Source: Phycisphaerae bacterium (GTDB lineage: Bacteria > Planctomycetota > Phycisphaerae > UBA1845). Taken from it: a stretch of 64,000 bases of DNA. The notes beneath the pieces were generated by a model that saw nothing but the letters and a program-made list of their open reading frames with translations, was not told where the DNA came from and did no database searches. The position numbers and the translations under genes are program-made. Positions 7,082-26,418 of the stretch are shown piece by piece. Location of the stretch: NCBI GenBank assembly GCA_963666835.2, contig CAXXGO010000001.1, forward strand, positions 864,001-928,000, given 5' to 3'. How positions within the stretch are numbered: position 1 is the stretch's first letter; the number at the start of each line of letters is the position of its first letter.

Positions 7082-8698
7082 TCATTCGTGGACGATCGTT
7101 ATGTCGTATCCCTTCAGCGTATACGGGCGGTCAATCACTAGCGATGTCCCGGCAAACGTATTGGTCGACCCGGACTTGAATATGAGGGTGGTCCCGTCGG
7201 CCGCCTCATCCACCGCGGCGGCGATACCGCCGTAGGGCGTCGCGGGCCACCCGTTGCCGGTGGCGCCGTTGCCGACGAACGCGACCGAGCCGGGCGCGAT
7301 TCGGATGACGTGTTGCTGGTTTGCGGTGTAGCCGAGATCAACATCATCGCAGACGTACCAGCCGTCGTCATCACCGCCCCTTCCGAGGTTCATCATGAAA
7401 CTCGTGTTCGGATCCGTGGCCGTGTCGTACCCGTACGCGACCCAGGCATGACCGACCGACTGGCCGGGCCGGTTGCCCCTGATCACCAAAGGCCGCAGCC
7501 ATTGGATCTCCTCGGTCATCGCGGCAATACTGCGATTGGAGTAGTGCGGTATGTAGTACTTGAAATAGGAGTACAGGGCATTAACAACGTCCCCCGTCTG
7601 GGCCGTGGACAGAAAGAGGCCCCAGTCCATCTTCACGGCCACGCCGACATGGAAGCAGAGCTTCGCAACCTCATCGTCGGGCGCGCCGTCGCCGTCGACA
7701 TGCTCGTCATGCATCAGGTCCCAGTCATACGTGGTCGCCCCGAAGTCGGCCTCTACGAGCGCCAAGTGCCAGCCGACGCGCGACCATAGCTCGGCAAGTG
7801 CGCCCAGGTACGCGGGGTCGTCGGAGATCTCCTGCGCCTTCTTGTAGGCGCTGTTATCCCAGTCACCACTCGCGCGCAACATCGCGACCGGCCCGCTGTG
7901 CCACTCCAATCGGCCTTGCCACACACTTGAGTCGATTCCGGGATCCGTGGCGAGTTGCGTGGCTTCCCAGTCGTCGAATCGGGCGAAGGCCCAGCTCGTG
8001 CCATAGGAACCCACGCCGGTTTCCGGCCACTGCCAGTAGTACATGGTCTGAGCCGTGGCCAGGGCAACACAACCGACCTTTGGATGTTCCTCCGGAGGCG
8101 CCGGGTGCCCTGGGGGGCCGGCCATGCTGGGACACCAGTCGTTGTAGGGTGAGCGCTGCGACCAGATGCTCGTCAACGGCAGGATCAGCATCTCCGGGTC
8201 GGCTCTGCCGCGCGCGGGTGCCCGCCCCACGGAGAGATCCGCCCACATCGCGGAACGATCAGCCATGGTATCCACATACGACTCGAGCTTTGGATCGTCC
8301 TTCTCTTCCGCCTCCTTAATCGCCGCAAGGCGCGCCGTGATCTCCCACAGAATGAACTGATGATTCGGGTCGTCGGGATCGTAAGTCCCTTCGGGGCTGT
8401 AGAAGTAGACCGGAAGAACCAGATCGTCCGCCCCGGACAGGCAGAAACCTCCGCCCGCAAGATGGACGATGTAGGCGACAGTCGCGCCATCGACTACATA
8501 AGGTTCCATACGTTCCACGGCGGCGTCGGCTCGCGCATCCGTAATGACTCCTTGCAACCAGGTCTCCACGGCGGCCGCAACTTCCTGCTCCGTCTTCGGC
8601 TCAGCACACAGCGGCACGACGGCGAAGAGCAGGCACAACACGGCGCTCATCCGGGAGAACGAGACCATCGCGGAGACTCGGGAGACACTCGCGTTCAT
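7082..8698 (-). CDS. Secreted streptopain-family (C10) cysteine peptidase with propeptide
   Basis: Signal peptide; propeptide GGFCLSGADDLVLPVYFYS; WSQRSPYN, VGCVALATAQTMYYWQWP, GHAWVAYGY; RBS AGGAG before ATG 8698. Confidence 0.85.
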   Translation of the reverse strand: MNASVSRVSAMVSFSRMSAVLCLLFAVVPLCAEPKTEQEVAAAVETWLQGVITDARADAAVERMEPYVVDGATVAYIVHLAGGGFCLSGADDLVLPVYFYSPEGTYDPDDPNHQFILWEITARLAAIKEAEEKDDPKLESYVDTMADRSAMWADLSVGRAPARGRADPEMLILPLTSIWSQRSPYNDWCPSMAGPPGHPAPPEEHPKVGCVALATAQTMYYWQWPETGVGSYGTSWAFARFDDWEATQLATDPGIDSSVWQGRLEWHSGPVAMLRASGDWDNSAYKKAQEISDDPAYLGALAELWSRVGWHLALVEADFGATTYDWDLMHDEHVDGDGAPDDEVAKLCFHVGVAVKMDWGLFLSTAQTGDVVNALYSYFKYYIPHYSNRSIAAMTEEIQWLRPLVIRGNRPGQSVGHAWVAYGYDTATDPNTSFMMNLGRGGDDDGWYVCDDVDLGYTANQQHVIRIAPGSVAFVGNGATGNGWPATPYGGIAAAVDEAADGTTLIFKSGSTNTFAGTSLVIDRPYTLKGYDITIVHE

Positions 8699-8723
8699 CA
8701 CCGCACTCCTTCCGTCGCTTTTG

Positions 8724-10649
8724 CTACTGGAGGCTGACCAGGACAAGAACCAAACCCGTACCCTCGGAAAGCGAGGTCATCGCCTTTCCGATCATGGCGC
8801 CCTGGGCTCTGGCCCGGTCGGTGACCTTCATGGCGTGCCCTGGCACATTGGACGTAGTCAGCAGATCGCCGGGTCTGATTGCCCCGTTGGACGCATCGCA
8901 CAAGGTCCACACTCGCCCGGTCAGGGCGATCGGGTGTTTGCCGTCGGCCATCGTACCATTCTGGCCCATGAGCATGCCGGGCTTGACTCCGCCCGCGCCA
9001 CTGACCACGCCCGCGACCGTGCAATCGTACGGCCGGTCAGCCACCACCAGCTTACCGGGGTTCTCGGCGTCGATCGCCACGACCATGCCGGGCTCGACGT
9101 CCACGCCTTCCGAGGCCACATCAAACTGCTCGGACAGATCGGCCCCGCCGGTTATCTCCAGCACGGAGACCTTGGTCCAGCCGTCATGATCTACGCTGAA
9201 GACTCTACCGCCGGTGTATTCGTTATACGCGACGATGAACTCGCCGTCCGCGTTGTCCCTCGAGAGCCAGAGAACCTCCCCGGTGCCTTCGTTCCGTGCG
9301 TGCACGGTCGACCAGGAGCCCACGCTGGTTATGTAGGCCGCTATGCCGGTGTTCGGCTGTGTATTGTGCACCTGAAGCGTCGCGTCACCTGTTCCCGCTC
9401 CAGCACTCTCAACATACAGGGCGGTACCGTCCGAACTCGTGTTGACGAAGTGACCGCCGTACCCACTCGTACTGGAGGACGTTCCTTTCACGCCCGCGCC
9501 TCCGCTCTGGGTGCAAGATCCCAAGACACCGGCAACTTTACCCAAAGCTTCAACACCATAACCACTCGGGGCGCTCGAGGTTGCAATGATGCCGCGCGCG
9601 GAACCGGAGGTAGACGTAGCAAGGGCAGCCATGGCCGCATACGCACTCAGCGCAGTCTGAGCCTTGATCCCGTATAACGTGCCATTCGCATCCGCTCTGA
9701 GTGAGGCCTCTACGTCCGGGCTGGCGCCGATGCCGACATTGTCATCCATTCTGGCGTCGCCGGAGACATGGAGGCTTTCCGTCGGGCTGGAGGTTCCGAT
9801 GCCGACGTTGCCCGCGGTATAATAGACATTGCTGCCGGACTGGGACCAGAGGCTCTCCCCGCCGCCGGACGCAGTCGTCTGAAGCGTGCCGTCAGGGAAC
9901 ATGATTCCGTCGACGCCTGCCGACCCGCCGATGTGCAGCTTCGCAGCCGGGTTCGACGTGCCAATGCCAACCCGATCACTGAAGTAGCCGCGTCCCTCGA
10001 ACCAGCCGCCATAGCCATTGGCAAAAGTCGACTCGCCCACGACCCCGGCCCACTCATGTCCCAGGTACCCCCGGGTGCCTTCACCTTGACACTCTCCTCC
10101 AACTGCGGTCGAGTCGTCGTCGACCACCTGCAGCGTATATAAGGGTGAGGAAGTGCCGACGCCGACCCTGCCGGTGTTAAAGAAAATGTTGGCGCCCGAT
10201 GCGGACCAAAGGCTCTCCGCTCCATTGAGAGCGTGCAGCGCATAAGGCGCGGGCCGAACTGGCTGGCGCGGGCTGAGGGTCGCCCAGTTGCCCTCGCCAG
10301 ACGGAAACTCGGCCCTGATCTCCAGCCATCGAGCGTTACCGTCAAACGCTGCGGGACCGAAATCCAACTCGACGGTGAACAAGCCGTCGACGACGTCGAC
10401 GAAAGACTTGCCGACAGTGTCGATGAGCGTGCCCCCCGTCGCGGCGTCATAGAGCCTGAAGCTTAAATCGGCCTGCCCCTCGACTGGCACACCGCCCGAT
10501 TTGAGTTGACCCTGGTAGGTGAAACTCGTCCCCACCGGTTCGGCAGCCAGGCCTGGCAGAGCCATGGCTCCACCCGCCACCACCATCACTATCATCCGGA
10601 CGGCCCAACCCGTTGCTTTGGTTTTCATGATTTGCCTCGTAGTCATCAT
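8724..10649 (-). CDS. Secreted fibre-like protein (FTYQG N-terminal domain, VGIGT repeats, chaperone-like C-terminus)
   Basis: GTSFTYQGQL...DGLFTVELDFG...RWLEI; repeated GNVGIGTSSP; C-terminal GGADLSEQF...GVVSGAGG...PIALTGRV...GDLLTTS...IGKAM resembling intramolecular-chaperone (peptidase G2-like) tails. Confidence 0.7.
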   Translation of the reverse strand: MMTTRQIMKTKATGWAVRMIVMVVAGGAMALPGLAAEPVGTSFTYQGQLKSGGVPVEGQADLSFRLYDAATGGTLIDTVGKSFVDVVDGLFTVELDFGPAAFDGNARWLEIRAEFPSGEGNWATLSPRQPVRPAPYALHALNGAESLWSASGANIFFNTGRVGVGTSSPLYTLQVVDDDSTAVGGECQGEGTRGYLGHEWAGVVGESTFANGYGGWFEGRGYFSDRVGIGTSNPAAKLHIGGSAGVDGIMFPDGTLQTTASGGGESLWSQSGSNVYYTAGNVGIGTSSPTESLHVSGDARMDDNVGIGASPDVEASLRADANGTLYGIKAQTALSAYAAMAALATSTSGSARGIIATSSAPSGYGVEALGKVAGVLGSCTQSGGAGVKGTSSSTSGYGGHFVNTSSDGTALYVESAGAGTGDATLQVHNTQPNTGIAAYITSVGSWSTVHARNEGTGEVLWLSRDNADGEFIVAYNEYTGGRVFSVDHDGWTKVSVLEITGGADLSEQFDVASEGVDVEPGMVVAIDAENPGKLVVADRPYDCTVAGVVSGAGGVKPGMLMGQNGTMADGKHPIALTGRVWTLCDASNGAIRPGDLLTTSNVPGHAMKVTDRARAQGAMIGKAMTSLSEGTGLVLVLVSLQ

Positions 10650-10711
10650 GGTCTTCCTCGCACTATCTGGGCGGTTTCGAAGCTTGTGGATCACGACTTG
10701 TGATCCGACTG

Positions 10712-11167
10712 TCACGAACCGCTGAACAATCGTTGAAACGCCGCGACATCCTTCAGATCGATGTCCTGGTCCTCATCGAAATCGAAGCACGCACAGGAAG
10801 GATCGACGGGCTCGCCGCCAGGCCCGGATGTGCAGGTGTTGAGCTCAGCGTAGTCGAACAGGTCGACTCCGCCGTCACCGTTGCTGTCGCCCGGGGGCTG
10901 GCCGTGCCAGAAGCCGCCGGTAAGCGTGAGCCCGCCGCCGCTCAGGACGCCGGCGTCCGGCTGCCCAATGGTCCCGGATAATTCGAACTCGCCCCCGATG
11001 CTGAGCGTGCTGCCGCCCCCATCCATCGTGAACCGACTGATTTCAAAGGTCGGTTCCTCCATAGGATTTGCCGTGTCCGTAATCGCACCGGCGATCAGCA
11101 CGCCGTTGCCAACCGCAGCGACCGTCAGCAGGACTAGGGTTACCTGCCTTCTTATTCCGAATCGCAC
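10712..11167 (-). CDS. Small secreted protein with dockerin-like paired EF-hand tail
   Basis: RBS GGAGG + GTG 11167; signal peptide; FTMDGGG...LSGTIGQPDAG...LTGGFW; GDSNGDGGVDLFDY and DFDEDQDIDLKDV. Confidence 0.7.
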   Translation of the reverse strand: MRFGIRRQVTLVLLTVAAVGNGVLIAGAITDTANPMEEPTFEISRFTMDGGGSTLSIGGEFELSGTIGQPDAGVLSGGGLTLTGGFWHGQPPGDSNGDGGVDLFDYAELNTCTSGPGGEPVDPSCACFDFDEDQDIDLKDVAAFQRLFSGS

Positions 11168-11477
11168 GTCCCTACCTCCCCAATGGGCTGCCTCGCTCGT
11201 GCCGCAAGGCGCGGCGTCCGGTAACAACAGCCGGAACCGGCCGTGAAGCGCCTGTCCTCCACAGATAGCGCCGGCCCGGTACGAAATGGACGCTGGGCGA
11301 CGGGAATAGTCGGACTTTCCGTGAGGAGGTCGTTTAATCCGGAGGTGGCGTCTTTGCCGGAAGGCGGTCATTGATAGAATGGGGGCTGGACTTATGGTCG
11401 TTGTTCGGGCCGCGATCATTCATCATAGTGCCTAGGGATCGCTTAGAGCCGTCCGACGACCCGGCAGCTTTTGAACC

Positions 11478-12092
11478 ATGGGTTCAGAAACCACTCAACC
11501 GTCATTGCTGTCACGAGTGCGTGATCCGGACAACGACTCCGCATGGCGAGAATTCGACGCCAAGTACCGGGAATTGATCCTGCGCTATTGCCGCGCCCGC
11601 GGCTTGCAGACCACCGACGCGGAGGACGTTCGCCAGATCGCGATGGCGAATCTGGCCAAGAGCCTGCGATCGTTCGAGTACAAGCCCGCGCGGGGGCGTT
11701 TTCGCGGCTACCTCGGCCAAGTGGTGCGGAGTGCGATTTCGCGCCATTTCAGCCGTCCAGATGCATCGCCCCGCGCGCTAGATACTAATGTGCTGGCCGC
11801 CGTCGAGGCCGACGATGCCGGGCAGGCGGATGAGGTCTGGGAGCGCGAATGGGCCCGGCACCACTACCGCCTAGCCATGCAGAGCGTTCGCGCCTCATTC
11901 GATGCGAAGAGCGTGCAGATTTTCGACCGGCTTCTCGCCGGGGATGGAGTGAACCAGTTGGCGTCTGATTTTCAGACAACGACTCAGGCTGTGCACAAGA
12001 TCAAACAGCGGATCCGTGACCGGCTGAAGGAGTTGATCGCGGCCCAGATTAGACAGGAGGATGATGACGGCAGTGCCTCCATCGCGCCATAA
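11478..12092 (+). CDS. ECF-type RNA polymerase sigma factor
   Basis: TQPSLLSRVR...AWREFDAKY...DAEDVRQ...RGRFRGYL; region-4 like AVHKIKQRIRDRL; overlaps kinase start. Confidence 0.85.
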   Translation: MGSETTQPSLLSRVRDPDNDSAWREFDAKYRELILRYCRARGLQTTDAEDVRQIAMANLAKSLRSFEYKPARGRFRGYLGQVVRSAISRHFSRPDASPRALDTNVLAAVEADDAGQADEVWEREWARHHYRLAMQSVRASFDAKSVQIFDRLLAGDGVNQLASDFQTTTQAVHKIKQRIRDRLKELIAAQIRQEDDDGSASIAP

Positions 12093-14592
12093 TCCGCTGC
12101 AAATCGGCGAAGTCCCCGACTCGTTCGGTTTTGGCGACGAGTCCGATGAGTGGATGGATCGTGTGCGCGAGGCGGAAACACCGGCGACGCTCGGCTGCAT
12201 CGGTCCGTATGAGCTAATCGAGGAAATAAGCCGCGGGGGGCAGGGCATCGTCTATCGTGCGCGCCAACCGGGCACCAAACGCGAGATAGTGGTGAAGCGT
12301 TTGCTGGCCGGCTCCTTCGCAACCCCGGCGATGCTTCGGCGATTCGAGCGTGAGGTCGAGCTGGCGGCTTCGTTAAACCACCCCGGCATCGTTACGGTGT
12401 TTGGAATCGAGATAGTCGACGGCCAGCCGCTACTGGCGATGGAGTGGATCGACGGCGTGCCGATCGATGAATGGGCGGCAGGGGGAGAGTCCGGCCACCG
12501 ACCACCGAAGCAGATCGCGGCAGTAATGCGCGACGTGTGCGACGCGGTGCGACACGCACATCAACACGGCGTGATCCACCGTGATCTTAAGCCGTCGAAC
12601 ATCCTTGTGGATCAAAGTGGCGTTCCGCATGTACTGGACTTCGGCCTTGCCCGGCCGATCGGGTCGGATGCCCAAGAAGGACAGACGGTTACCTTGACGG
12701 AGCAATTCGTTGGTACGCCCGCCTACGCTTCTCCTGAGCATCTGCGCAGTGGCACCAGTGTGGTCGACGTCAGAGCCGACGTGTATTCACTTGGTGTGGT
12801 TCTGTATAACTGCCTGACCGGTACCCTTCCCTACGATGTCGGAGGTGACCTGCCCGATGTCTTCCATCGCATCGAGCACGCGGAGCCGATCCGCCCGTCC
12901 AGCATTGCACCTCATCTCGACCGAGACATCGAATCCATCGTTTTGAAGGCCCTGACCAAGGAGAAGGAGCTGCGGTATCAGTCAGTTGATCTGCTCGCGG
13001 AGGATCTGCGCCGCTACCTCGAGAACGAACCGATCCTCGCCCGCCCGCCGGGCACCCTCTACCAGTTTGGGAAGTTCGCAAAGCGCAACAAAAAGCTGGT
13101 GACCGCCGTGATCATCGCGTTTGCCGCTCTGACCTGGGCAATGATTGGCGTGACGTTGGAGCGCAATCGCGCGCTTCGGGCCGAGGAAGCTGCCGAGCGG
13201 CAGGCCGCCATAGCCCAGGCCGTCAACGACTTCCTTAACGACGATCTTCTATCGGCGGTTGACCCGCTGAAACAGCAGGGGCGCGATGTCACGGTCCTCG
13301 AAGTCCTGCAAAAGGCATCGGAGACCATCGAGGACAGGTTCAACGAAGAACCCCTTGTCGAGGCTGCGGTTCGGCTGACGTTGGGAAACACGTACATGAA
13401 CCTGGGGCAATTCGAACTGGCCGAGCCGCATCTTGTCCAGGCACATGCCTTGCGGCAGGAAGAAGTGGGCGAGGATCATATCGATTCGCTGGAGTCTCTA
13501 ATGCTCCTGGGTCACTTGCGTGTCAGACAGGGGCAATATTTGGAAGCTGAGCCTCTGCTGATCAGGAACCTGGAACTCCACCGCCGTGTGTTGGGTAAAG
13601 ACGACCCCGACACGTTGAGCGCCATGGAGGTACTGGGAGTGTTGTACCGGCGGCTGGGCCGGTACAACGAGGCGGAGCCGCTCTATCTCGAGGTGCTGGA
13701 GACGCGCCGCCGAGTCCTCGGCGAAGAGCACCGCCACACGATCGTGGCCCTGCGGAATCTCGCCATCCTCTACAAGGAGAGAAAGGAGTACGACAAGGCG
13801 GAGCCGCTCTACAGCGAGGCCCTGGAACTCGGCCGACGCGTCCTGGGCGACAAGCACCCAGACACGTTGGGCGCGCTGAGCAGCCTGGCCACTTTGTACC
13901 AGGGCCAACGAAGGTTCGACGAAGCGGAGCCCCTGCAAATAGAGGTCATCCAGACCCAACGAGACCTGCTCGGCAAGGACCACCCGGACACCCTGGCGTC
14001 CAGGCAGAGCCTAGCTTTCCTCTACCTCTCCCAGCGCAAACTTGATCAGGCCGAGTCGCTCTTTCAAGAGATCCTCGAAGCCCGGTGTCGGGTGCTGGGC
14101 GAGGAACATCCGCATACGCTCGACACGATGTATGGTCTATCAGCCGTCTACCACTACTTGGAGCAGTACCACAAGGCGGAAGCGATGATGGCCCAAGTGA
14201 TGGAGGCCTATCGACGGGTTCTCGGTGAGGATAACCCCAACACGGTGAACTCCATCGCGGCCGTGGCAAAGCTCCGGTGGCATCAGGGCCGGTTCGAGGA
14301 AGCCCTGCCGCTCTACCGCGAAGCGCTCGAGAAGCGCAGCCGCGCCATGGGTGAGGACCACCCGCGGTCCCTTCGTTTGCTCCGCGGGCTCGTGACGACG
14401 CTCGTAGCTTTGAAGCGGTTTGAGGAGGCGGAGCCCCTCGCGAGAGACTGCTATGAGCGACACGCGAGGGTGTTCGGCCCGGACGACAAGGAGAATCGAG
14501 CGGTCACTGAGCTTCTGGCCGAGCTCTACCAGGGGTGGGGTAAACCTGAAAGGGCGGATGAATACCGCGCCCTGCTGGGCGACGAACCGTGA
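12061..14592 (+). CDS. Membrane Ser/Thr protein kinase with C-terminal 42-aa TPR array
   Basis: RGGQGIVY, HRDLKPSN, DFGLA, GTPAYASPE, DVYSLG; one TM helix; repeated LGxxHPxTL TPR units. Confidence 0.92.
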   Translation: MMTAVPPSRHNPLQIGEVPDSFGFGDESDEWMDRVREAETPATLGCIGPYELIEEISRGGQGIVYRARQPGTKREIVVKRLLAGSFATPAMLRRFEREVELAASLNHPGIVTVFGIEIVDGQPLLAMEWIDGVPIDEWAAGGESGHRPPKQIAAVMRDVCDAVRHAHQHGVIHRDLKPSNILVDQSGVPHVLDFGLARPIGSDAQEGQTVTLTEQFVGTPAYASPEHLRSGTSVVDVRADVYSLGVVLYNCLTGTLPYDVGGDLPDVFHRIEHAEPIRPSSIAPHLDRDIESIVLKALTKEKELRYQSVDLLAEDLRRYLENEPILARPPGTLYQFGKFAKRNKKLVTAVIIAFAALTWAMIGVTLERNRALRAEEAAERQAAIAQAVNDFLNDDLLSAVDPLKQQGRDVTVLEVLQKASETIEDRFNEEPLVEAAVRLTLGNTYMNLGQFELAEPHLVQAHALRQEEVGEDHIDSLESLMLLGHLRVRQGQYLEAEPLLIRNLELHRRVLGKDDPDTLSAMEVLGVLYRRLGRYNEAEPLYLEVLETRRRVLGEEHRHTIVALRNLAILYKERKEYDKAEPLYSEALELGRRVLGDKHPDTLGALSSLATLYQGQRRFDEAEPLQIEVIQTQRDLLGKDHPDTLASRQSLAFLYLSQRKLDQAESLFQEILEARCRVLGEEHPHTLDTMYGLSAVYHYLEQYHKAEAMMAQVMEAYRRVLGEDNPNTVNSIAAVAKLRWHQGRFEEALPLYREALEKRSRAMGEDHPRSLRLLRGLVTTLVALKRFEEAEPLARDCYERHARVFGPDDKENRAVTELLAELYQGWGKPERADEYRALLGDEP

Positions 14593-15049: not shown

Positions 15050-16141
15050 TCAGGCTGCCACGCGATAGTAGTGTCGCAAGAGGCCGCCGAGGAACCGTTG
15101 ACAACGGATGCGGCCAAGTGGCGTTGGTGGATCGTATCGCGATTCCTCGAGTGGTCCTGTGGCTGCGGCAGGCAACGTGCGATTCCCGAGGCCCTGGTGA
15201 GGGCGATGCTCGTTGAAGAAGCGCACGTATTGCTGGCCAATGTGGTTGAGATGGCCGAGGCTGAAGCACAGGAAGTAGTCCAATGCCTCTCGCTTGAGGG
15301 CCCCTATCCAGGCCTCAGCGAAGGCATTCGCATCGGGAGCAAGGAGCGGTGTTCGCAAACAGCGGATGCCGTCACTCTTGAATAAACGACGGAACGCAGC
15401 CGAGAGCTTCGTGTCGCGGTCGTGGATGAGGAACCGCGCCCCGAGCCGCTGATCTTCGAGCCACATCATCGCGTTCCACCCTTGCTGTTGGACCCACCGA
15501 TCGTCAGGGTGATACGTAGGCGGACTGAGAAACACCTTGCGCGTGCCGATATGGATGAACGCGAGGCAATAAGCGACCCGGATACCGAAGGGCGTAACCA
15601 CGTTCTTGGTGAAAAAGTCGCAGGCAACGAGCGTATCCAAGTGAAGTCGGATGAACTTCCTCCATGTTGTTTCGTCAGCCCTCCCTCGACGTGTGGGGGA
15701 GGGAGTCAGTCCTTCTTCCTTCAGGATCCGCCGGACCGAGGACCGGCCGAGCTTGAGCCGGAGCTTCCGGAGCTCGCCGACGATGCGGCGATAGCCCCAG
15801 CCGGCGTTCTCCTTGGCCAAGCGGATGACGACTTTGCGCATATTGCGGGCGATCTTCGGGCGGCCGACGCGTTTCGGTTGGCGCTCTTCCCTTAGCTCCG
15901 TCACCCAGCGACAATACGTCCGTGGCGTGACGATGCCGATCACGTCGGCGACATCGTGGTCGAGCTCCTGGCCGATTGCCAGCAGCCGGGCGCGATCGTT
16001 TGGGCTGGGAATGACCCGGTTACCGCCGAGCTTGCGTCGTAGGATCTCGACCTGGGCTTTGAGGAAGCGGATGCGGGCATCGCGGCGCGCGGCGCCGGCT
16101 TCAAAGAGGAGGTGCAGAGCGACGTAGAACCAGCGGAGCAT
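15050..16141 (-). CDS. Transposase, integrase core (rve) domain (third, divergent IS; ends not defined)
   Basis: WGYRRIVGEL, ACDFFT, LIHDRDTK, PDANAFAEAWIGALKREAL, RPHQGLGN, LGGLLRHYYRVAA. Confidence 0.88.
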   Translation of the reverse strand: MLRWFYVALHLLFEAGAARRDARIRFLKAQVEILRRKLGGNRVIPSPNDRARLLAIGQELDHDVADVIGIVTPRTYCRWVTELREERQPKRVGRPKIARNMRKVVIRLAKENAGWGYRRIVGELRKLRLKLGRSSVRRILKEEGLTPSPTRRGRADETTWRKFIRLHLDTLVACDFFTKNVVTPFGIRVAYCLAFIHIGTRKVFLSPPTYHPDDRWVQQQGWNAMMWLEDQRLGARFLIHDRDTKLSAAFRRLFKSDGIRCLRTPLLAPDANAFAEAWIGALKREALDYFLCFSLGHLNHIGQQYVRFFNEHRPHQGLGNRTLPAAATGPLEESRYDPPTPLGRIRCQRFLGGLLRHYYRVAA

Positions 16142-16752: not shown

Positions 16753-17736
16753 TCACGAATCATCGACCCAGTCCTGGACATCCTCCTCCGCCGTTACGGG
16801 AGGGCATTGGGACTGATCCGTGATACACATGTCCTCGTAGGCGAAGTTGAATTCTCTGGCGACTTGTCGAAAAGCAGCGTCTACTTCGGGAGGCATCGCG
16901 GCATTGGACGGTTCGGGTACACGGGTCATGATATTCGCCCCGGCGTACTCGCCGGCAGGAGTTGAGCCACAATACGTGTACATAATCCAATCCGGATCAG
17001 GTCTGGAAAGGACGTACCAGCGTTCATGCTGAGGTTGAAGGGGTGAATTGGTGTAGGAGACTTCCAGCAAGCCAGGTTCCTGCTCGCTTATCCTGGGCTC
17101 CGCGATCAAGTGAACGGCTTCTTCTTCGTTACAACCACCGTCTTCCGCAGGGCCACGGAAGGATGTATGATACCACCACTGTTGTGCATGATAGACCCAG
17201 GAACTCGATCGGCACGGAAGGGCATCGTATCCACCTTCCCAATTCGACCCAGGCACACCACAGTTCAGGCCCCGCACCTCCAGCCATGTGCCCTCGATCT
17301 CGTCAAGGCTCCCAAGAACATGTACTTTGTGAACGTTCTCGCCGGTAACCAGACATTGGCCATCCGTGCCTTCCGGCAAGGTTGGTAAACAACCGTTGCC
17401 GGCAAAGCATTGAACCAAGAGGCTGTATATCTCGCTCTCTTCTCCTTGAGCGAGTTGACAGAACAGGTGGCAGGCCTGACTGTGTGCCCCTGCTGAACCG
17501 CATTCCGCGTTGCATGTGAGTGTTTCACGGCAAGGAGGCTCCAACACGCAAAGAACCATCTCTAAAGGGCATTTGGTCAGACCACACATTAACAGTTCTA
17601 GGTCCGAGTTCGTGGCGTTGAAGGAGTTGCAGCCTTGACTCAACGCCAGAGTGAAAAGAACGAGAAAGGCAAGATATATTCTACTCACTTCTGCCCCAGT
17701 CCTAGTAGTTTGCGAGGTCAACGCATCACCCGACAT
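16753..17736 (-). CDS. Violaxanthin de-epoxidase (VDE/VDL)-like lipocalin, probable lipoprotein
   Basis: Hydrophobic stretch ending LSQGC; Cys-rich CGLTKCPLEMVLCVLEPPCRETLTCNAEC...CHLFC...CFAGNGCLP; lipocalin GTWLEVRGLN...YDALPC...WYVLS...YTYCG...YAGANIMTR...TDQSQCP. Confidence 0.7.
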   Translation of the reverse strand: MSGDALTSQTTRTGAEVSRIYLAFLVLFTLALSQGCNSFNATNSDLELLMCGLTKCPLEMVLCVLEPPCRETLTCNAECGSAGAHSQACHLFCQLAQGEESEIYSLLVQCFAGNGCLPTLPEGTDGQCLVTGENVHKVHVLGSLDEIEGTWLEVRGLNCGVPGSNWEGGYDALPCRSSSWVYHAQQWWYHTSFRGPAEDGGCNEEEAVHLIAEPRISEQEPGLLEVSYTNSPLQPQHERWYVLSRPDPDWIMYTYCGSTPAGEYAGANIMTRVPEPSNAAMPPEVDAAFRQVAREFNFAYEDMCITDQSQCPPVTAEEDVQDWVDDS

Positions 17737-17889: not shown

Positions 17890-18543
17890 TCATGTCGCCC
17901 CGAAGCTCTCATCTGCGTTCCCGACGATTTCAACGGGCAGTTGCACCTCGCCGTACTTCAAGAACCCGAGCACGAACGGGCTGTTGTACGCCAAATAGCG
18001 CGGCGGACCGATGATGCGAACCTGACCTGCACGCTGTTGGACCCACGCATTCAGCCGGCCGATCGCCTTCTCGAAGTTGGCGTTGGTATAACCGCCTCGG
18101 ACGCCGATGGATACCACGGTCATGGCGGGAACATCTTCAACAACGACGCGCTGATCGGCGGCATCTGTTCCTGAAGTGCCCCACGATGGCTCGCCGTACA
18201 GAAACGCCATCGATGTAGCGCCCTCGCTGGGTTCAACGTGTTCGGGATAGCCCATCTCCACCGGGGCAGTCATGGGGATGTCGTTCCGCTTGATGTGGTT
18301 GAACAACGGACGGAACATCACGTTGGGGCGGCCTTTGACCCCACCCTCGCCTCTCTGAATGCGCGCCATGCGGTATGCCGGATACTCCTTGACGATGATG
18401 TCGCCCACGCGGCCGGGCGAAGGGAAACCGGCCGGCAGCTTTGCTTCCTTGAACATGAACGGACGTTTCATTTCATTGTTGCCCGCGCAGCCCGCCAGCG
18501 GGGCCAGCGGGATAATCAAGGCAAGATGAAAAACGGATCGCAT
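17890..18543 (-). CDS. SOUL-family heme-binding lipoprotein
   Basis: Lipobox LAGC; VKEYPAYR, FRPLFNHIKRNDIPMTAPVE, MAFLY, YNSPF. Confidence 0.85.
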   Translation of the reverse strand: MRSVFHLALIIPLAPLAGCAGNNEMKRPFMFKEAKLPAGFPSPGRVGDIIVKEYPAYRMARIQRGEGGVKGRPNVMFRPLFNHIKRNDIPMTAPVEMGYPEHVEPSEGATSMAFLYGEPSWGTSGTDAADQRVVVEDVPAMTVVSIGVRGGYTNANFEKAIGRLNAWVQQRAGQVRIIGPPRYLAYNSPFVLGFLKYGEVQLPVEIVGNADESFGAT

Positions 18544-18892
18544 GCGAACCCCCCTGATCCATGACTGAGCGTGATTCGCTCTGTTCAGCATCTTGCCCAC
18601 CATCTGTACCGAATATCGCTGACCACCGCCAACTACGACCACGCAGCCGTCTCGTGATTCTATCTGCCACTTGGCTTACCGGCATCTTATCGCGCGGCTG
18701 TCTCCGGCGCAAGGCGCGCGGTGACCTCGACCTGCTGCCAATCAGGACGCCTCAGTCAAACCTCCGCCGCGCAATCGCGCAACACCCTGGATAGCGTTTT
18801 CGGGAGGCACAGGTGGCCCCCAGGTGCCAGCCAGGGATTTGCCCTTGAGCCGCTGAGCGATCTCGGCGGCGCAGACAGGTAGAGGCAAGACG

Positions 18893-20071: not shown

Positions 20072-21724
20072 TCAGTTAGTGGTGGCGGGTTTCCAGCGGT
20101 CGGGGAGTAGCCCGGGTAGTTCGTTGATCGGCATGGCCGCGATGCGGGTGAGCACATCGCGGAGATAGGTCATCGGCTCGACCCGGTGACGCTCACAGGT
20201 GGCGATCATGCTGAACAACGTTGCAGCGGTGCGGCCGCCATTGTCCGAGCCGACAAAAAGCCAGTTTTTGCGTCCCACGGCCACCCGACGCAGGGCGTTC
20301 TCGCTGGCGTTGTTGTCGATGGCCAGGCGACCGTCCGTGGTGTACACGCACAACGCGTCCCACTGGTTGAGCGCGTACTGAATCGCCTGGCCCATCGGGC
20401 TCTTGGGCAACAACGTACCACCACGCTCGGCCTGCTGTGATTGCAGCCACCCCCGGAGCTGCGCGAGCCGAGGCACAGCGTGCTTCTGACGCAGACGAAA
20501 ACGATTCTCGGCCAGCAACTCGTGCAGACGCCGATCGGATGCCCCGTTGACGAGTGCCGGCTTCGCCGCCTGCTTGGTTTCCTTCTTCGCCTGAGTCTCG
20601 ACGTCGTACAGTAGCCGAATGTGCGCCAGAGCTTGAGCACTGGTTGCCGGGTCACTCTTTTGCGCATCGTAAAACTTCCGCCGCGCATGCGCCCAGCACG
20701 CCACCTCCGTCACGCGACCGCCGGCCTCGCCCGCGTAGATGCCGTCATACCCGCCGAACGCGTCGGCCTGCAGATACACCCGTTCGTCTTTGCCCCAATC
20801 GCGCAGGAACGCCATTGGCCCGTCGCGACTGCGGCTCGGGGTGTACGCGAATACGGTGTACGAATGATCGGGATCCCCCAGGTAAACCCAGAACCGCCCG
20901 GTCCGCGTCTGCGTGCGGCCGCGATCCTGCACCTTCACCGGCGTGTCGTCCGTGTGGATGACCTTCGAGGACCGCACTTCGTCGACCATCAGGTCGTACA
21001 ACGGCCTCAGCAGCCCCGCACATTGCGCCGCCCAGTCGCACATCGTCGAACGGGAGATCTCGATCCCGTGTCGCTGCAGGATTCGCTCCAGCCGGTGCAT
21101 CGGCAGATGATCGCCATACTTACTGACGATGATATAGCTCAGCAGTCCGGGGGCGGCCAAACCCTTCTCGATCGGCTGCAGCGGCTTGTTCGCAGTCACG
21201 ATCTGCGGGCCGTCAGGCGAGGCGTCCTTCTCGCACTGCGGGCAGCCGTACGTCAGACGAATGTGCTCGATCACCTTCACCTTCGCCGGGATGTAGTCGA
21301 GTTGTTCGTGCGTTTCCTTGCCGATGATGTGCCGAAGCTTTCCGCAGCACGGACAGGGCTTCTCTTCTTCCGGCAAATCGTGAATGACCTTCTCGCGCGG
21401 TAGGTTCGACGGCAGACGGCGACGGCCATGACCTTTACTCCGATGCGTCGGCGCCGCCGACGTATCGCCATCATCATCCGCCGGCATCTCGGGGATAGCC
21501 TTGTCGATCAGATTCTCGAACAGCAGCATCTGTCTCGGATCCATCTTCTCCGATGACCGACCAAAGTGGCGACGCAGTAACGCCTGCACCTGATGCTGCA
21601 GATCATCGATCTTGCGGTCCTTGAGTTTCAGCTGTTCGAGGTATTCGTCTCGCTCGGATCGAAGCAGTTCGACTTCGCGTTGAAGCTGGGCGACTTGCGA
21701 CGTGTTAGGATCATCCGTGATCAT
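20072..21724 (-). CDS. tnpC: IS66 transposase TnpC
   Basis: FGRSSEK, CPCCG...CPQC, KYGDHLP, HTDDTPV, LQADAFGGY, CWAHARRKF, IDNNASENALR...GRKNWLF. Confidence 0.93.
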   Translation of the reverse strand: MITDDPNTSQVAQLQREVELLRSERDEYLEQLKLKDRKIDDLQHQVQALLRRHFGRSSEKMDPRQMLLFENLIDKAIPEMPADDDGDTSAAPTHRSKGHGRRRLPSNLPREKVIHDLPEEEKPCPCCGKLRHIIGKETHEQLDYIPAKVKVIEHIRLTYGCPQCEKDASPDGPQIVTANKPLQPIEKGLAAPGLLSYIIVSKYGDHLPMHRLERILQRHGIEISRSTMCDWAAQCAGLLRPLYDLMVDEVRSSKVIHTDDTPVKVQDRGRTQTRTGRFWVYLGDPDHSYTVFAYTPSRSRDGPMAFLRDWGKDERVYLQADAFGGYDGIYAGEAGGRVTEVACWAHARRKFYDAQKSDPATSAQALAHIRLLYDVETQAKKETKQAAKPALVNGASDRRLHELLAENRFRLRQKHAVPRLAQLRGWLQSQQAERGGTLLPKSPMGQAIQYALNQWDALCVYTTDGRLAIDNNASENALRRVAVGRKNWLFVGSDNGGRTAATLFSMIATCERHRVEPMTYLRDVLTRIAAMPINELPGLLPDRWKPATTN

Positions 21725-21786
21725 GCCAAAATGACAAGCATGTGGCATGCCAGAATGAAGCCCATGCCCGACTCCCTGGTGATGAA

Positions 21787-22164
21787 TCACGCCGGGCGGC
21801 GGAATCGTTTGCGGCGCTTGATGCTTCGCAGGTCGATCCCTTCCAGCAGCATCGCCAACTCGCTCGCCTTCAGTTCGATGCTCGTCGTATCGGGTTTGGC
21901 CACCGGCATCCGAAAGGTCCCCTTCTCCAGCCGCTTGTACCACAGTGCGTAACCGTCGCGATCCCAATAAAGGATCTTCAGCCGGTCACGGCGCCGCCCG
22001 ACGAACAGGAACAGGTGCCCGCTCAAGGGATCGTAACCCAGACCGTCCCGTACCAACACCGCCAGTGTGTCGAATCCCTTACGCAGATCGGTCCGCGACG
22101 TGCACAGGTAGACCCGAACACGCAGCCCCTGGTCAAGATCACCCAGGCTCGGCAACCTCAGCAT
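21787..22164 (-). CDS. tnpB: IS66 accessory protein TnpB
   Basis: DLRKGFDTL...LFLFVGRRRDRLKILYWDRDGYALWYKRLEKGTF. Confidence 0.93.
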   Translation of the reverse strand: MLRLPSLGDLDQGLRVRVYLCTSRTDLRKGFDTLAVLVRDGLGYDPLSGHLFLFVGRRRDRLKILYWDRDGYALWYKRLEKGTFRMPVAKPDTTSIELKASELAMLLEGIDLRSIKRRKRFRRPA

Positions 22165-22496
22165 GCCCGATGCTCCAAGACGTCCAGCACTTGCGTCAGC
22201 ATTTCACGATTCACCGTTCCCATGACTCGAACGCGCCGGCCATCCGTTAGCTCAATCTCGATCTGCCCAGCGCCGTCCCGCGCCGGATCATCAGCCAGGT
22301 GCACCGGCACGAACGAGCTGGCCTGCGCCTCCGCGTCGCGCCGAGCCAGTTGCCGCCGCCACCAGTGGAACGCGGCCTCCTTCACCCGATGCCGGCGACA
22401 CCACGCCCGGATGGACTGCCCACTGTCGGCATGCTCAGCCAGCCGCCGACGCCACGCCGATTCCTTGGTCAGATCCCGTGCTCTGCTCCTGGCCAT
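22158..22496 (-). CDS. tnpA: IS66 accessory protein TnpA
   Basis: SGQSIRAWCRRH...FHWWRRQL...FVPV...IEIELTDGRRVRV. Confidence 0.88.
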   Translation of the reverse strand: MARSRARDLTKESAWRRRLAEHADSGQSIRAWCRRHRVKEAAFHWWRRQLARRDAEAQASSFVPVHLADDPARDGAGQIEIELTDGRRVRVMGTVNREMLTQVLDVLEHRAC

Positions 22497-23007
22497 GCGC
22501 CATACCTCCTCTCGGGTAGGCATGGTGCCTCAAACGGACGTCAGATTGAAGATGGGGTCCGCCGGACGCTTACGATGTTATCGTAATATGCGAGTGAAGT
22601 GCTCGACACCTATGACGAAACCCGGCTACGCGAATACGTTGATCGGATATCTAACAGTTGCTGCTGGTGCCACACTGATAATCACTCCAGGCGTGCAGCT
22701 TTCGACTGTCAGTTACTACCATGCGGTGAGCAGTTTCGGTCGACTGGACGCGTTAGGCGTGACCTTTTATAATGAATTCGCCCGATCAGGTCAGGAACCC
22801 ATGACCGAGATCAGACTGGATTTTCTCACAAAGAATGGCACTGAAAAGGGGTAAGCTCCACAGACGTCTGCGGAGTAACGTAACGAGTGGTATGAAACCG
22901 GTGGTAAGGCCACGCCCAAGTGTCAGCGGGCGGGCAAAACCGGCCAGCCCTGACGCCCGTGCTGCACGAGACAACTCCAAGCGCTGAAGATCGACGACGC
23001 GGGAACT

Positions 23008-26000
23008 TCAATAGTCTAGCAGTAGTGTCCCTGGCCGCCTCGGTGTCTCACCTGCCGTAGAAAGCCGCAATCGCCCGTCCATCGTTAGCCAAGCAGCTCG
23101 AGGAAGGCGAGGGTCACCCTCGACCGTTGTTTCCGCCGTCGAAAAATCGTAGCTTTGCCACTCGGGTTGTCCAGCTAAACGATATCGCAATTCGACAAAC
23201 TCCATCTGCCGCCGCTTGAACGCTTCCGGGCCACCAATCGCTTCGAGAAAGGAATTCACGAGCGTGCCGTGCTGTATTTCGTACCGATCGATAGCCCCAA
23301 AGCAGTGCGATGCGTCCGCCTCGTCGGCATGTTCCGTGACACACATAGTGAATCGCGTCCGCAATTCACCAAGTGAGTCAGTGATTTCATCCAGCGAAAG
23401 CGTGAATGTGTACTCTGTCTCTGGGGTCCATCGGAGCTCGTCATTGCGGATGCTTGCGTAGTTCTGATCGCGTTTGTCTGGCTTGCGCTTGAAACCATAG
23501 AAGCCGTCATTCACGCCAATCCCGTTGAAGCAGTTCCTATGCTCCTCGCCAAAGCCAGAGTTGTTCCATACTGAGAAGATGTGTCGGTATCGGGACGGGT
23601 CGGCTTCATAAGGGCGGAACTGAAGTCCTGCATATCCCTCATTGAACCGCATGGCACAATAATAGGTGTGGGCGAGCTCAAGCACCCTAATACGCATGCT
23701 GGTCTCTGCGAAGTGTTCATTCCCACTCAGATGGACGAATCGACCGTGGAGGGCGCGCCGAGCCCGCCCATCATAAGTGAACACTGGATACGAGATTGTT
23801 CGTGGCACACTCTCAGAGGACACAACATAGTAAATCCTGCACAGCGCCTGTTGTTCAAGCGTCAGGTCCGGCTGATAGCTGAGGTTTCTTGGCGGCGATA
23901 GCACAAGGAGACCCCTCTCGCCAGGAGCGAGCCTGCTCGGGCCGACAGCAGGTATCGAGTAGGTGTTTTCGTCAGTCTCAAGCTCCGCCCACCATTCCAC
24001 AATCTCGATCGTGGGTGACAAATCGTATGCTTGGTAAGCCAGCTCCTGCACGTTGCCGACGCCAATGTACATGTTGCGGCATAGGCCACGTGCGGCCACG
24101 GGTGGACGTGGCAAAGAGCAGTCTTCGTTCGAACGGCGCGTGATCGACTCAGCAAGCCAGCCGCCATCCTCGTCATCTACATACTCGATAGCAACCGATT
24201 CGCCGAGATTTTCAGGGGCAACATTATAGGAGATCAGGTGTTCGCAGCGATGCGCGGCTAGGTAACGAGGTTGGCTGTCCAGGATCGTGTAGGACCGCTG
24301 CTGGCCGTCTAAGGACGCAAGGATTTGCTGAAAGGGCTGGCCATGGACGCGCGCAGCAGGTGAGAACAAGCTGGTCAAAGTCTGTACGTCTGAATCGCCG
24401 GCAGCCTGCAGGAGTACGTTGGTTACGTGCGGTACCGTACCTGGGTCTGGTGATGTAGCAGCTTGGGCCACGTGGATGGTGATTACCTCTTCGTCTTCCA
24501 GAGCCGGATTCCCGTCATCGCTGACAGTGAAACGTACGTCCACGTGCTCGCCATACTGGCCAGGTCGAGGCGTCCAGCTGAATGTTTGGTTGATAGGGTC
24601 GAAGTTCGCTCCTTTGGGGAGATTGGAGGCGCGGTATGTAAGGATGGTGTTATGGTCAGGATCAACAGCGGATACGGCAAATGAGAGGAGTTCGCCCTCG
24701 GTTACCGTCGCATCGTCGATGCGCGTCATGGCTGGTGCGAGATTGCATTCTCCGTGCCAGCCGCATGCGGGCCCCGGGCACGCGCCGGGGCCACTCAGGC
24801 AGTACGTGGACGTTATGTAGTCGTTGATGTCAACATCAAGATCGCCATCGAGATCATGCGAGAGACAGGCCGCGTTCGAACAGAGGGTCGTGCCCGATGC
24901 GAAGCACCGTTGGAAATCCGCGAAATCGTGAAGATCGACATCGCCATCGTTATCCACGTCGTTACGGTGGGGCGGGGGCCGGATCACGCGAGCAAGCAAG
25001 TAGCCTTCATGAAAGTAGATGTCTGTTGTACTGATCGCCAACTGCAAGGGGGCGCCAGAGCCAGTGTAGTAATACACATACCTATGTTGGGACGCATCCT
25101 CTACGTGCGCGTCAACGACAGCCCCATCCAGCAAGAGCGCGTTGTAACGAGTCACCCAGTGACCGGCAGTATTCTGACGGTACTGGGAATCAGCTAGCCC
25201 GCCGTCGTTTCCTGAGTCGTAACGGTAGATTCCTGAGACCTCGATAGTGTACAACTCACCGTCGGCCAACGTGTGTGCTGTGAAGACCGGCGTGCCGTCG
25301 GCGGGGACGTATGCTAGCTCCCACTTCCCCCTTGACAACTCACACTCATCGGGGATCCCATTGACATCCCTGTCCACACTGTCACCCATACCAATATCGA
25401 TTGCATCGGGAACGCTGTTGAGGTTGCAGTCTTGACACTCGTCCGGCACCCCGTCGCTGTTGATGTCCGGTGCGCCAAGGTTGGCAATGTCGCACAAGTC
25501 GGGGACACCGTTTGAATTGCAGTCCGCCGCTGAGTCGGATGCGGTCTCACATTCGTCTGGAACGCCGTTCAACTGACAGTCTTCGCTTGTATGTTGGTCG
25601 ATCTCGCACGCGTCGGGAACATCGTTTGCTTGGCAATCAGCAGCGCCGCCAAGGAGGTCACAGGCATCGAGAATACCGTTCCCATCACAGTCATTGTCAA
25701 AGTAGGCGTGAACTTGTACGGCGTCCACCAGCCATCCGGTCTCGTAGTTCACAAGCTCGTCGACCGAGTCAAAATGCCAGCTGATGACGATTGTCTCTCC
25801 GATGAACGATGACAGATCCACGACGCGCATGCCCCAGGTTGCGCTGTCATCGTCCCGGCTGACGTCGTCCACGAGGTGGCCGTTGACCTCGACCCAGGCC
25901 CAATCGTATCCATCCCCGGAGCCTGCCATGCAGGCCTCCCCCTCGTATGCCGAGCAGTAACGCAATTCCACGGTTGTCGCGTATGACGGGATTTCGAAGG

Positions 26001-26418
26001 AGGCGCTGGCAAGCGTACCGCGGATCGAAGACGGAGCGTCAAAATCGCAGGTTGCATCTTGGCCATAATACGCCCATCGAAGGGAATCACACTCCTCGGG
26101 AGGGCCACACGAATCCGTTGTGTGCCACATACCCGTGGCCGACCATCCCTCTGAGGGAAACGTTCCTTCGAAGTCCTCGTACAACAAAACCGCATCGCCC
26201 GCAATCTGGCAATCGTCTGGCACGCCATCGTTGTTGCAGTCGGACACGGTTCCGCATCCAGGGAAATCACACGAGCCGCCGGATGGGCCGCAATCAATGT
26301 CACACTCGTCAGGAACGCCATTATTGTTGCAGTCTTGCCCATGTAGCGGAGCTGGCTCGGCTAGAAAGATCCCACTGATCACGGCTATCGTGAGCACTAT
26401 TCTGCGATGATTGGCCAT
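23008..26418 (-). CDS. Large secreted mosaic protein: DCNxNG repeats, jelly-roll-like domain, dockerin-like EF pair, Ig-like domain, C-terminal DUF3472-like domain
   Basis: Signal peptide; DCNNNGVPDECD repeats; DVDNDGDVDLHDFADFQRCF/DLDGDLDVDINDY; LPKGANFDP...FSWTP; GYAGLQ...IFSVW...SFLE. Confidence 0.75.
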   Translation of the reverse strand: MANHRRIVLTIAVISGIFLAEPAPLHGQDCNNNGVPDECDIDCGPSGGSCDFPGCGTVSDCNNDGVPDDCQIAGDAVLLYEDFEGTFPSEGWSATGMWHTTDSCGPPEECDSLRWAYYGQDATCDFDAPSSIRGTLASASFEIPSYATTVELRYCSAYEGEACMAGSGDGYDWAWVEVNGHLVDDVSRDDDSATWGMRVVDLSSFIGETIVISWHFDSVDELVNYETGWLVDAVQVHAYFDNDCDGNGILDACDLLGGAADCQANDVPDACEIDQHTSEDCQLNGVPDECETASDSAADCNSNGVPDLCDIANLGAPDINSDGVPDECQDCNLNSVPDAIDIGMGDSVDRDVNGIPDECELSRGKWELAYVPADGTPVFTAHTLADGELYTIEVSGIYRYDSGNDGGLADSQYRQNTAGHWVTRYNALLLDGAVVDAHVEDASQHRYVYYYTGSGAPLQLAISTTDIYFHEGYLLARVIRPPPHRNDVDNDGDVDLHDFADFQRCFASGTTLCSNAACLSHDLDGDLDVDINDYITSTYCLSGPGACPGPACGWHGECNLAPAMTRIDDATVTEGELLSFAVSAVDPDHNTILTYRASNLPKGANFDPINQTFSWTPRPGQYGEHVDVRFTVSDDGNPALEDEEVITIHVAQAATSPDPGTVPHVTNVLLQAAGDSDVQTLTSLFSPAARVHGQPFQQILASLDGQQRSYTILDSQPRYLAAHRCEHLISYNVAPENLGESVAIEYVDDEDGGWLAESITRRSNEDCSLPRPPVAARGLCRNMYIGVGNVQELAYQAYDLSPTIEIVEWWAELETDENTYSIPAVGPSRLAPGERGLLVLSPPRNLSYQPDLTLEQQALCRIYYVVSSESVPRTISYPVFTYDGRARRALHGRFVHLSGNEHFAETSMRIRVLELAHTYYCAMRFNEGYAGLQFRPYEADPSRYRHIFSVWNNSGFGEEHRNCFNGIGVNDGFYGFKRKPDKRDQNYASIRNDELRWTPETEYTFTLSLDEITDSLGELRTRFTMCVTEHADEADASHCFGAIDRYEIQHGTLVNSFLEAIGGPEAFKRRQMEFVELRYRLAGQPEWQSYDFSTAETTVEGDPRLPRAAWLTMDGRLRLSTAGETPRRPGTLLLDY

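Follow-up and report, generated by a model that had tools for sequence, protein, structure and literature searches.

The closest described systems to the protein analyzed here are violaxanthin de-epoxidase (VDE) and its relatives VDL and VDR. Coesel et al. 2008 (PMC2483416) describe VDE as having no prokaryotic homologue, and only eukaryotes with chlorophyll b or c as joining the Cys-rich domain to a lipocalin. A 2026 review (PMC13181403) treats the origin of VDE as an open question and, in its passages that mention prokaryotes or bacteria, names no bacterial member; the VDE numbering and residue roles used below, including the role of D114, follow that review, according to which the VDE structure has been solved for the lipocalin part only. 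These two sources agree with the premise of the original prediction that the literature regards the family as eukaryotic. VDL1 is described as isomerizing its epoxide without ascorbate (PMC13181403, PMC7056318). The review reports that Glu replaces D177 in both VDL and VDR, and that VDR, with the same residues, has no known activity (PMC13181403). We found no paper on bacterial VDE-family members, which subscription papers or supplements may list; already known are the PF07137 tags that these bacterial proteins carry in databases.

We have characterized a gene in a 64,000-nucleotide stretch of a Phycisphaerae contig (hereafter the window; Table 1) which, judged from its sequence, is an exported relative of plant VDE in a non-photosynthetic bacterium. 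The open reading frame is intact and intronless, lies among bacterial genes on a contig of 2.17 Mb, and is covered by contigs from two studies. The encoded protein scores 63.8 bits against PF07137 (gathering cut-off 25.7) over model positions 4-241 of 242, in line with the original prediction of a prokaryotic family member. The underlying observation, a Cys-rich N-terminal domain followed by a VDE-like lipocalin, is likewise confirmed, and the claimed match in Cys pattern extends to all positions: the ten cysteines from C51 to C116 align with all ten cysteines of both VDE-type rows of our alignment. By analogy with VDE, these residues would form disulfides. No match of the window protein to the Pfam models Lipocalin or Lipocalin_2 was found at E<=0.1. 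The original description of a full VDE architecture does not hold, as the third, Glu-rich domain (~100 residues in VDE) is absent from the window protein, whose tail has 20 residues compared with 89 and 101 in the two VDE-type rows. The window protein is probably the exported lipoprotein that was foreseen, anchored at Cys36: the motif xx[GAS]C, as judged by pattern, occurs in 68 of 74 complete homologue N-termini, the Oligoflexales members being without a lipobox motif.

Table 1. Positions of the features discussed; plain numbers refer to the window, prefixed ones to other loci or contigs.
Feature	Position	Strand	Description
VDE-family ORF	16753..17736	(-)	327 aa from ATG 17736
VDE-family ORF, likely start	17688	(-)	GTG, giving 311 aa
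Probable lipoprotein signal peptide	17629..17688	(-)	Ends Gly-Cys36 after hydrophobic stretch; non-canonical lipobox SQGC
Helical Cys-rich domain	17389..17586	(-)	Residues 51-116, ten Cys
Lipocalin barrel	16801..17364	(-)	Residues 125-312, fold predicted
Cys-containing insertion	17236..17262	(-)	Residues 159-167
Asp171	17224..17226	(-)	Arabidopsis D114
Glu238-Arg-Trp240	17017..17025	(-)	Arabidopsis D177-D178-W179; catalytic acid retained as Glu
Tyr255	16972..16974	(-)	Arabidopsis Y198
SOUL heme-binding family gene	17890..18642	(-)	Likely start 18543, LAGC lipobox
Integrase/transposase (rve) ORF	15050..16141	(-)	Downstream, context only
IS66 transposase and two adjacent small ORFs	20072..22523	(-)	Upstream, context
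Barrel lipoprotein partner, window genome	G000:C6:1316764-1317621 = L040:8765-9622	(-)	Unlinked to VDE-family gene
Group B genes	L065:1402-2247; L066:1447-2292		Oligoflexales phylum genomes
Partner with carotenoid-type genes	L114:8249-18553 (G851)		See text
Short Blc-lipocalin and CIA30 ORFs	L115:8859-9621 (G000:C6 ~2466860-2467620)		Adjoining; each a partial Pfam match
Two phytoene-dehydrogenase-like oxidoreductases	L116:5600-14721 (G000:C6)		Clustered with further genes
C10 peptidase	7082-8746		Exported
663-aa ORF	8724-10715		Exported; without Pfam match
ECF-type sigma factor	11478-12092		Region 7082-14592
Ser/Thr kinase-TPR gene	12061-14592		Region 7082-14592
1136-aa exported protein	23008-26418		Cys/Asp-rich repeats, Ig-like domain, DUF3472
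Second integrase-like ORF	26838-27860		By eye like that at 15050-16141
GC-skewed half	31000-64000		Strong, steady positive skew (0.06-0.31 per kb); first half near zero

The columns corresponding to D114, D/E177, W179 and Y198 are invariant in all 39 aligned members of the window clade (clade A; 47-79% identical) and in 16/16 clade rows of a wider alignment, where position 177 is Glu in each of the 16; the acid and Trp are kept across nearly all VDE-family clades of that alignment. The Q119 column holds Arg in 15 of the 16 clade rows, and in the window protein H121 has become Ser, D117 Pro and Y214 Met. Because the ten cysteines and the pocket are kept, whilst Q119, H121, D117 and Y214 are changed and the tail is short, we assign the protein on sequence grounds to the VDE family but not to VDE proper. 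The acidic motif that had been called altered, and taken to suggest a different activity, is indeed changed at D177, but an acid is retained as Glu238 (39/39). The invariance of this residue, and its identity to the change seen in VDL and VDR, argue for a VDL/VDR-type pocket rather than a dead one. The retention of two charged or polar residues within a hydrophobic barrel suggests catalysis, following the argument made for VDL and VDR (PMC13181403). A true violaxanthin de-epoxidase, ascorbate-dependent, acid-activated and serving a bacterial xanthophyll cycle, would share the family membership, ten cysteines and retained D114, W179 and Y198, but is highly improbable given the changes at D177, Q119, H121 and Y214, the missing Glu-rich tail, the borderline p-AU of 0.039 for grouping clade A with VDE-type rows, and the 92% complete host genome, in which neither a reaction-centre match (PF00124) nor a phytoene/squalene synthase (PF00494) was found. 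That genome also gave no crtI match above cut-off.

The structural comparison proposed with the original prediction supports kinship to VDE in part: VIA-align identifies VDE as the best fold match of the window protein, but Foldseek places the carrier ApoD above VDE and has crustacyanin and biliverdin-binding proteins among its top rows. These matches would suit a non-catalytic periplasmic carrier or scavenger of a hydrophobic ligand (a tetrapyrrole, oxidized lipid or carotenoid), exchanging it with the partner barrel described below in the manner of Blc, ApoD or SOUL. Most lipocalins are carriers (PMC13181403), heme or porphyrin binders (SOUL, TspO) occur as neighbors, one family member carries a Blc-type lipocalin as a fusion, and Arg replaces the ascorbate-site Q119. 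Such a carrier is possible but doubtful, since acid, Tyr, Trp and Asp are invariant at the VDE catalytic positions of sequences this divergent, which would exceed the conservation usual in carriers.

With the query counted, the window protein and its relatives fall into 93 clusters at 42-90% identity, each of which already carries the PF07137 tag. Among GTDB genomes, 35 of 82 pattern matches encode relatives (46-84% identity), at loci titled Planctomycetota, Hydrogenedentota, Myxococcota/Deltaproteobacteria and Oligoflexales (four phyla). The distribution is patchy, with carriers making up 3 of 61 genomes among the window genome's relatives (none of 36 from the same family), 6 of 301 in its class and 5 of 126 Hydrogenedentota. 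Counting any PF07137 match above cut-off, the figures are 4 of 301 for the myxococcal phylum, where 2 of 5 matches comprise the Cys-rich part only, and 7 of 116 for the Oligoflexales phylum. The gene had been described as rare, which fits its patchiness but not the number of clusters and GTDB loci. The same loci bear on whether the gene could be a contaminant, a misassembly or a decaying eukaryotic fragment. Its low GC, the transposase genes on both sides and its eukaryotic nearest outside relatives might prompt that reading, to which we give practically no credence: the frame is intact on a long bacterial contig recovered in two studies, relatives occur in four phyla, the cysteines and pocket are invariant in the aligned clade, and the independent genomes carrying relatives effectively rule such an artefact out. 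A separate oddity is P0125, which combines the N-terminal half of a VDE-family protein with a C-terminal portion of the partner and may be a product of chimeric assembly or deletion.

In 21 of the 35 loci the VDE-family gene adjoins, in an upstream, downstream or convergent position, a gene for a lipoprotein of ~285 residues which is modeled as a beta-barrel (pLDDT 89). For the remaining 14/14 this partner is encoded at another site of the genome, in two cases as a piece at the end of a contig, and all 35 loci belong to genomes that also encode the barrel lipoprotein. In the window's genome an ISL3 transposase lies ~100 bases upstream of the partner. The partner family has a conserved DxDxDGxPG motif and no name. 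Co-occurrence, in counts that include related and non-independent genomes, is seen in the class sample (6/6 carriers vs 5/295 non-carriers), in Hydrogenedentota (5/5 vs 24/121) and, taking any score, in the Oligoflexales phylum (6/7 vs 14/109). Since the partner is far commoner (1934 clusters vs 93), it would work without the VDE-family gene, and the dependence is one-way. The distant clade D of the VDE family also adjoins the partner in two genomes; two clade-D genomes (G701 and G306) are without it. One genome (L001 and L028) has two copies of the pair of partner and VDE-family gene. In another, G851, the partner has as neighbors genes for CrtO, two crtI-family desaturases, a glycosyltransferase, an aldehyde dehydrogenase and a BLUF-EAL protein, a cluster that we take to be of C30-carotenoid type; this genome also holds a Blc-VDE fusion adjoining glutathione peroxidase.

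To place the clade we started from 399 profile matches, 271 of them full length, and built a quick tree of 85 rows (34 fixed, the others below 58% identity) and a careful tree of 43 rows. Both trees are unrooted, with long branches and without VDL or an outgroup; the VDE and VDR labels are feature-based, and the clades were named once the first tree was known. Clade A has 100/99 support and joins clade C, which contains Amphimedon, Chromera and Euglena proteins and mostly unnamed rows, also at 100/99. The nearest relatives of the window protein outside its clade are secreted-looking sponge, Chromera and Euglena proteins rather than plant VDE, a relationship that, like the partner gene, the original prediction did not anticipate. 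Nesting of clade A within C is not rejected (p-AU 0.38). The Cys159 column of the insertion is filled in 16/16 clade A rows, 21/27 clade C rows and 0/28 others; the insertion is present in most secreted eukaryotic clade members and missing from VDE-type, VDR-type and other bacterial groups. Further GTDB bacterial groups are placed elsewhere, B beside chytrid proteins, one of them from Blyttiomyces, and D on a long branch. Monophyly of the 13 GTDB bacterial rows is rejected (p-AU 4e-5), and on these trees the bacterial sequences fall into no fewer than three groups.

Group B retains D114, Q119, D177 and Y198 in 16/16 rows and W179 in 15/16, and scores ~98-127 bits on PF07137 where scanned. Judged by these residues, its members are more promising candidates than the window gene for a VDE-like activity; two of the 16 rows are placed in genomes, the other 14 being unnamed proteins (e.g. 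P0129, P0139 and P0141). Group D (L067, L068, L069, L073 and L041) has Glu177 and Val in the Y198 column. In two genomes its gene and the adjoining partner are divergent, and in another it lies back-to-back with a SOUL gene. Records from sponges, chromerids, euglenids and chytrids also include a large set of secreted-looking VDE-domain proteins (P0401, P0095, P0256 and P0175), and ESM Atlas clusters of VDE-domain proteins are most often from Porifera and Mollusca. The one paper that our literature searches brought up on such proteins reports a VDE-like protein in the heterotrophic MAST-4 (PMC3998028).

One history that would accommodate these relatives is that the fusion of Cys-rich domain and lipocalin predates plastids, having arisen or long resided in bacteria, where it would have served with a barrel partner as an envelope enzyme acting on epoxidized lipids. 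Eukaryotes would have inherited or received it; animals, fungi and protists would have kept it as a secreted protein, and algae recruited it as VDE, VDL and VDR, whilst group B might represent an active de-epoxidase in organisms that do not photosynthesize. We consider this whole scheme speculative and on balance improbable. The unrooted trees are compatible with it, but no less so with eukaryote-to-bacterium transfer on three or more occasions.

The gene neighborhood offers further context. The SOUL gene, the only match in the genome to our SOUL queries, lies 153 bases upstream of the VDE-family gene on the same strand. SOUL genes also flank VDE-family genes in L028 and L073, making three loci in two clades, and the partner in L054. 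SOUL, CIA30, fasciclin, DUF2867 and Blc are stress-linked families. Within 6 kb of the gene, ten of the 36 clade loci carry at least one gene for SOUL, TspO, fasciclin, CIA30, DUF2867, photolyase or glutathione peroxidase, and one of the ten has a Blc-lipocalin fused to the VDE-family protein; this count has no background rate, the families were chosen post hoc from the same loci, the main Pfam scan covered 89 of 199 neighbor ORFs, and 26 of the 36 loci show none of the genes sought. Loci with the partner only contribute further genes for TspO (four), photolyase and BLUF as well as a carotenoid-type cluster. In Rhodobacter, tspO, photolyases and glutathione peroxidase are described as singlet-oxygen response genes (PMC7074977).

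The locally low GC noted originally is borne out, and in 28 of the 35 loci the GC of the gene is below that of the flanking DNA. Together with the patchy distribution and the flanking transposases, this suggests that the VDE-family gene is passed among bacterial lineages and reached the window genome fairly recently. On contig C6 of the window genome, the adjoining Blc-lipocalin and CIA30 ORFs of L115 are possibly remnants of a stress cluster, and the phytoene-dehydrogenase-like oxidoreductases of L116 have neighbors that we read by eye as an ACP, ketoacyl synthase, dehydratase and enoyl reductase. Within the window, the sigma factor and kinase genes are divergent from those for the C10 peptidase and the 663-residue exported protein.

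A dietary role has also to be considered, in which the protein would be a secreted digestive or detoxifying enzyme that rearranges violaxanthin-type epoxides from algal or plant food, in sponges, chytrids and predatory or detritus-feeding bacteria. Phytoene/squalene synthase is missing from 8 of the 11 carrier genomes examined and present in 3, so that a carotenoid substrate would be foreign to most; the nearest named relatives look secreted, the Atlas clusters point to Porifera and Mollusca, and VDE is described as promiscuous towards carotenoids (PMC13181403). Against it, no carotenoid-cleavage or uptake gene recurs among the neighbors scanned, and in one carrier genome the partner lies next to a carotenoid-type cluster of the host itself (with CrtO, two crtI-family genes and BLUF-EAL), which points to self-made polyenes there. 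We regard a dietary role as unlikely.

Our preferred, though tentative, explanation is that the window protein is an ascorbate-independent envelope enzyme acting on an epoxidized or otherwise oxidized hydrophobic molecule, such as a polyene or a lipid of the membrane; it would belong to an oxidative or light-stress protection kit that includes the barrel lipoprotein. The protein would be exported and anchored at Cys36, as its N-terminal pattern suggests, and its ten-Cys domain, whose cysteines are conserved, would fold oxidatively with VDE-like disulfides. The predicted lipocalin barrel would then take up the substrate against Trp240, and Glu238, helped by Tyr255, would protonate the epoxide oxygen. 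By analogy with VDL1 (PMC7056318), the outcome would be a redox-neutral rearrangement or opening rather than an ascorbate-driven de-epoxidation. Because the His121-Tyr214 switch and the acidic tail are absent, the reaction would not be gated by pH. The barrel partner, which co-occurs with the enzyme, may carry its substrate or product or share its pathway. Counting against this enzyme reading are VDR, with its like residues and no known activity, and the Foldseek ranking of ApoD above VDE; the sponge protein among the nearest eukaryotic relatives counts against it too, as a bacterial envelope role is inapplicable there.

That the fusion occurs in at least three groups of bacteria, as well as in proteins of sponge, chytrid and other protist origin, contradicts both premises of Coesel et al. 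and challenges the view that the VDE family arose in photosynthetic eukaryotes. With the fusion found in bacteria and non-photosynthetic eukaryotes, the question of its origin becomes testable by a rooted tree. The small, tail-less bacterial proteins provide a route to a first full-length structure including the Cys-rich domain, and bacterial members are material for assays of new epoxide chemistry.

Of the known systems, Arabidopsis VDE (PDB 3CQN/3CQR; PF07137) has in common with the window protein the ten-Cys helical domain, the lipocalin barrel, D114, W179, Y198, C118 and the C-terminal Cys. The window protein differs in the pocket and tail changes set out above, in its extra cysteines (128, 159, 202, 256 and 304), in being a probable bacterial lipoprotein on a separate tree branch, and in a host in which no photosynthesis genes were found. 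VDL1 and VDL2, the VDE-like epoxide-to-allene tautomerases of diatoms, Nannochloropsis and haptophytes, share by published description (PMC13181403) Glu177, W179, Y198 and a reduced or absent acidic tail; this likeness is drawn from residue descriptions and not from a VDL sequence. In the literature covered, VDL is restricted to chromalveolates and located in the plastid lumen; an enlarged lipocalin domain is a further VDL trait. VDR has Glu177, W179, Y198, the ten cysteines and no acidic tail in common with the window protein, but the three VDR-type rows, so labeled by their features, have a long N-terminal extension, make up a separate clade (100/99) distant from the window clade, and stand apart from it in both trees. 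Blc and ApoD-type carriers differ from the window protein in having no Cys-rich domain. The secreted eukaryotic VDE lipocalin domain-containing proteins, namely Amphimedon XP_019849923.1, Chromera Cvel_6806, that of Euglena mutabilis and chytrid Blyttiomyces KAJ3314929.1, with which we group MAST-4 protein 1451 by its published description (PMC3998028), differ in having no evident lipid anchor, in retaining Q119 and in their eukaryotic hosts; they match the window protein in their two domains, length of ~280-310 residues and hydrophobic N-terminus, and the sponge/Chromera group shares with the window clade both the Cys159 insertion and Glu177.
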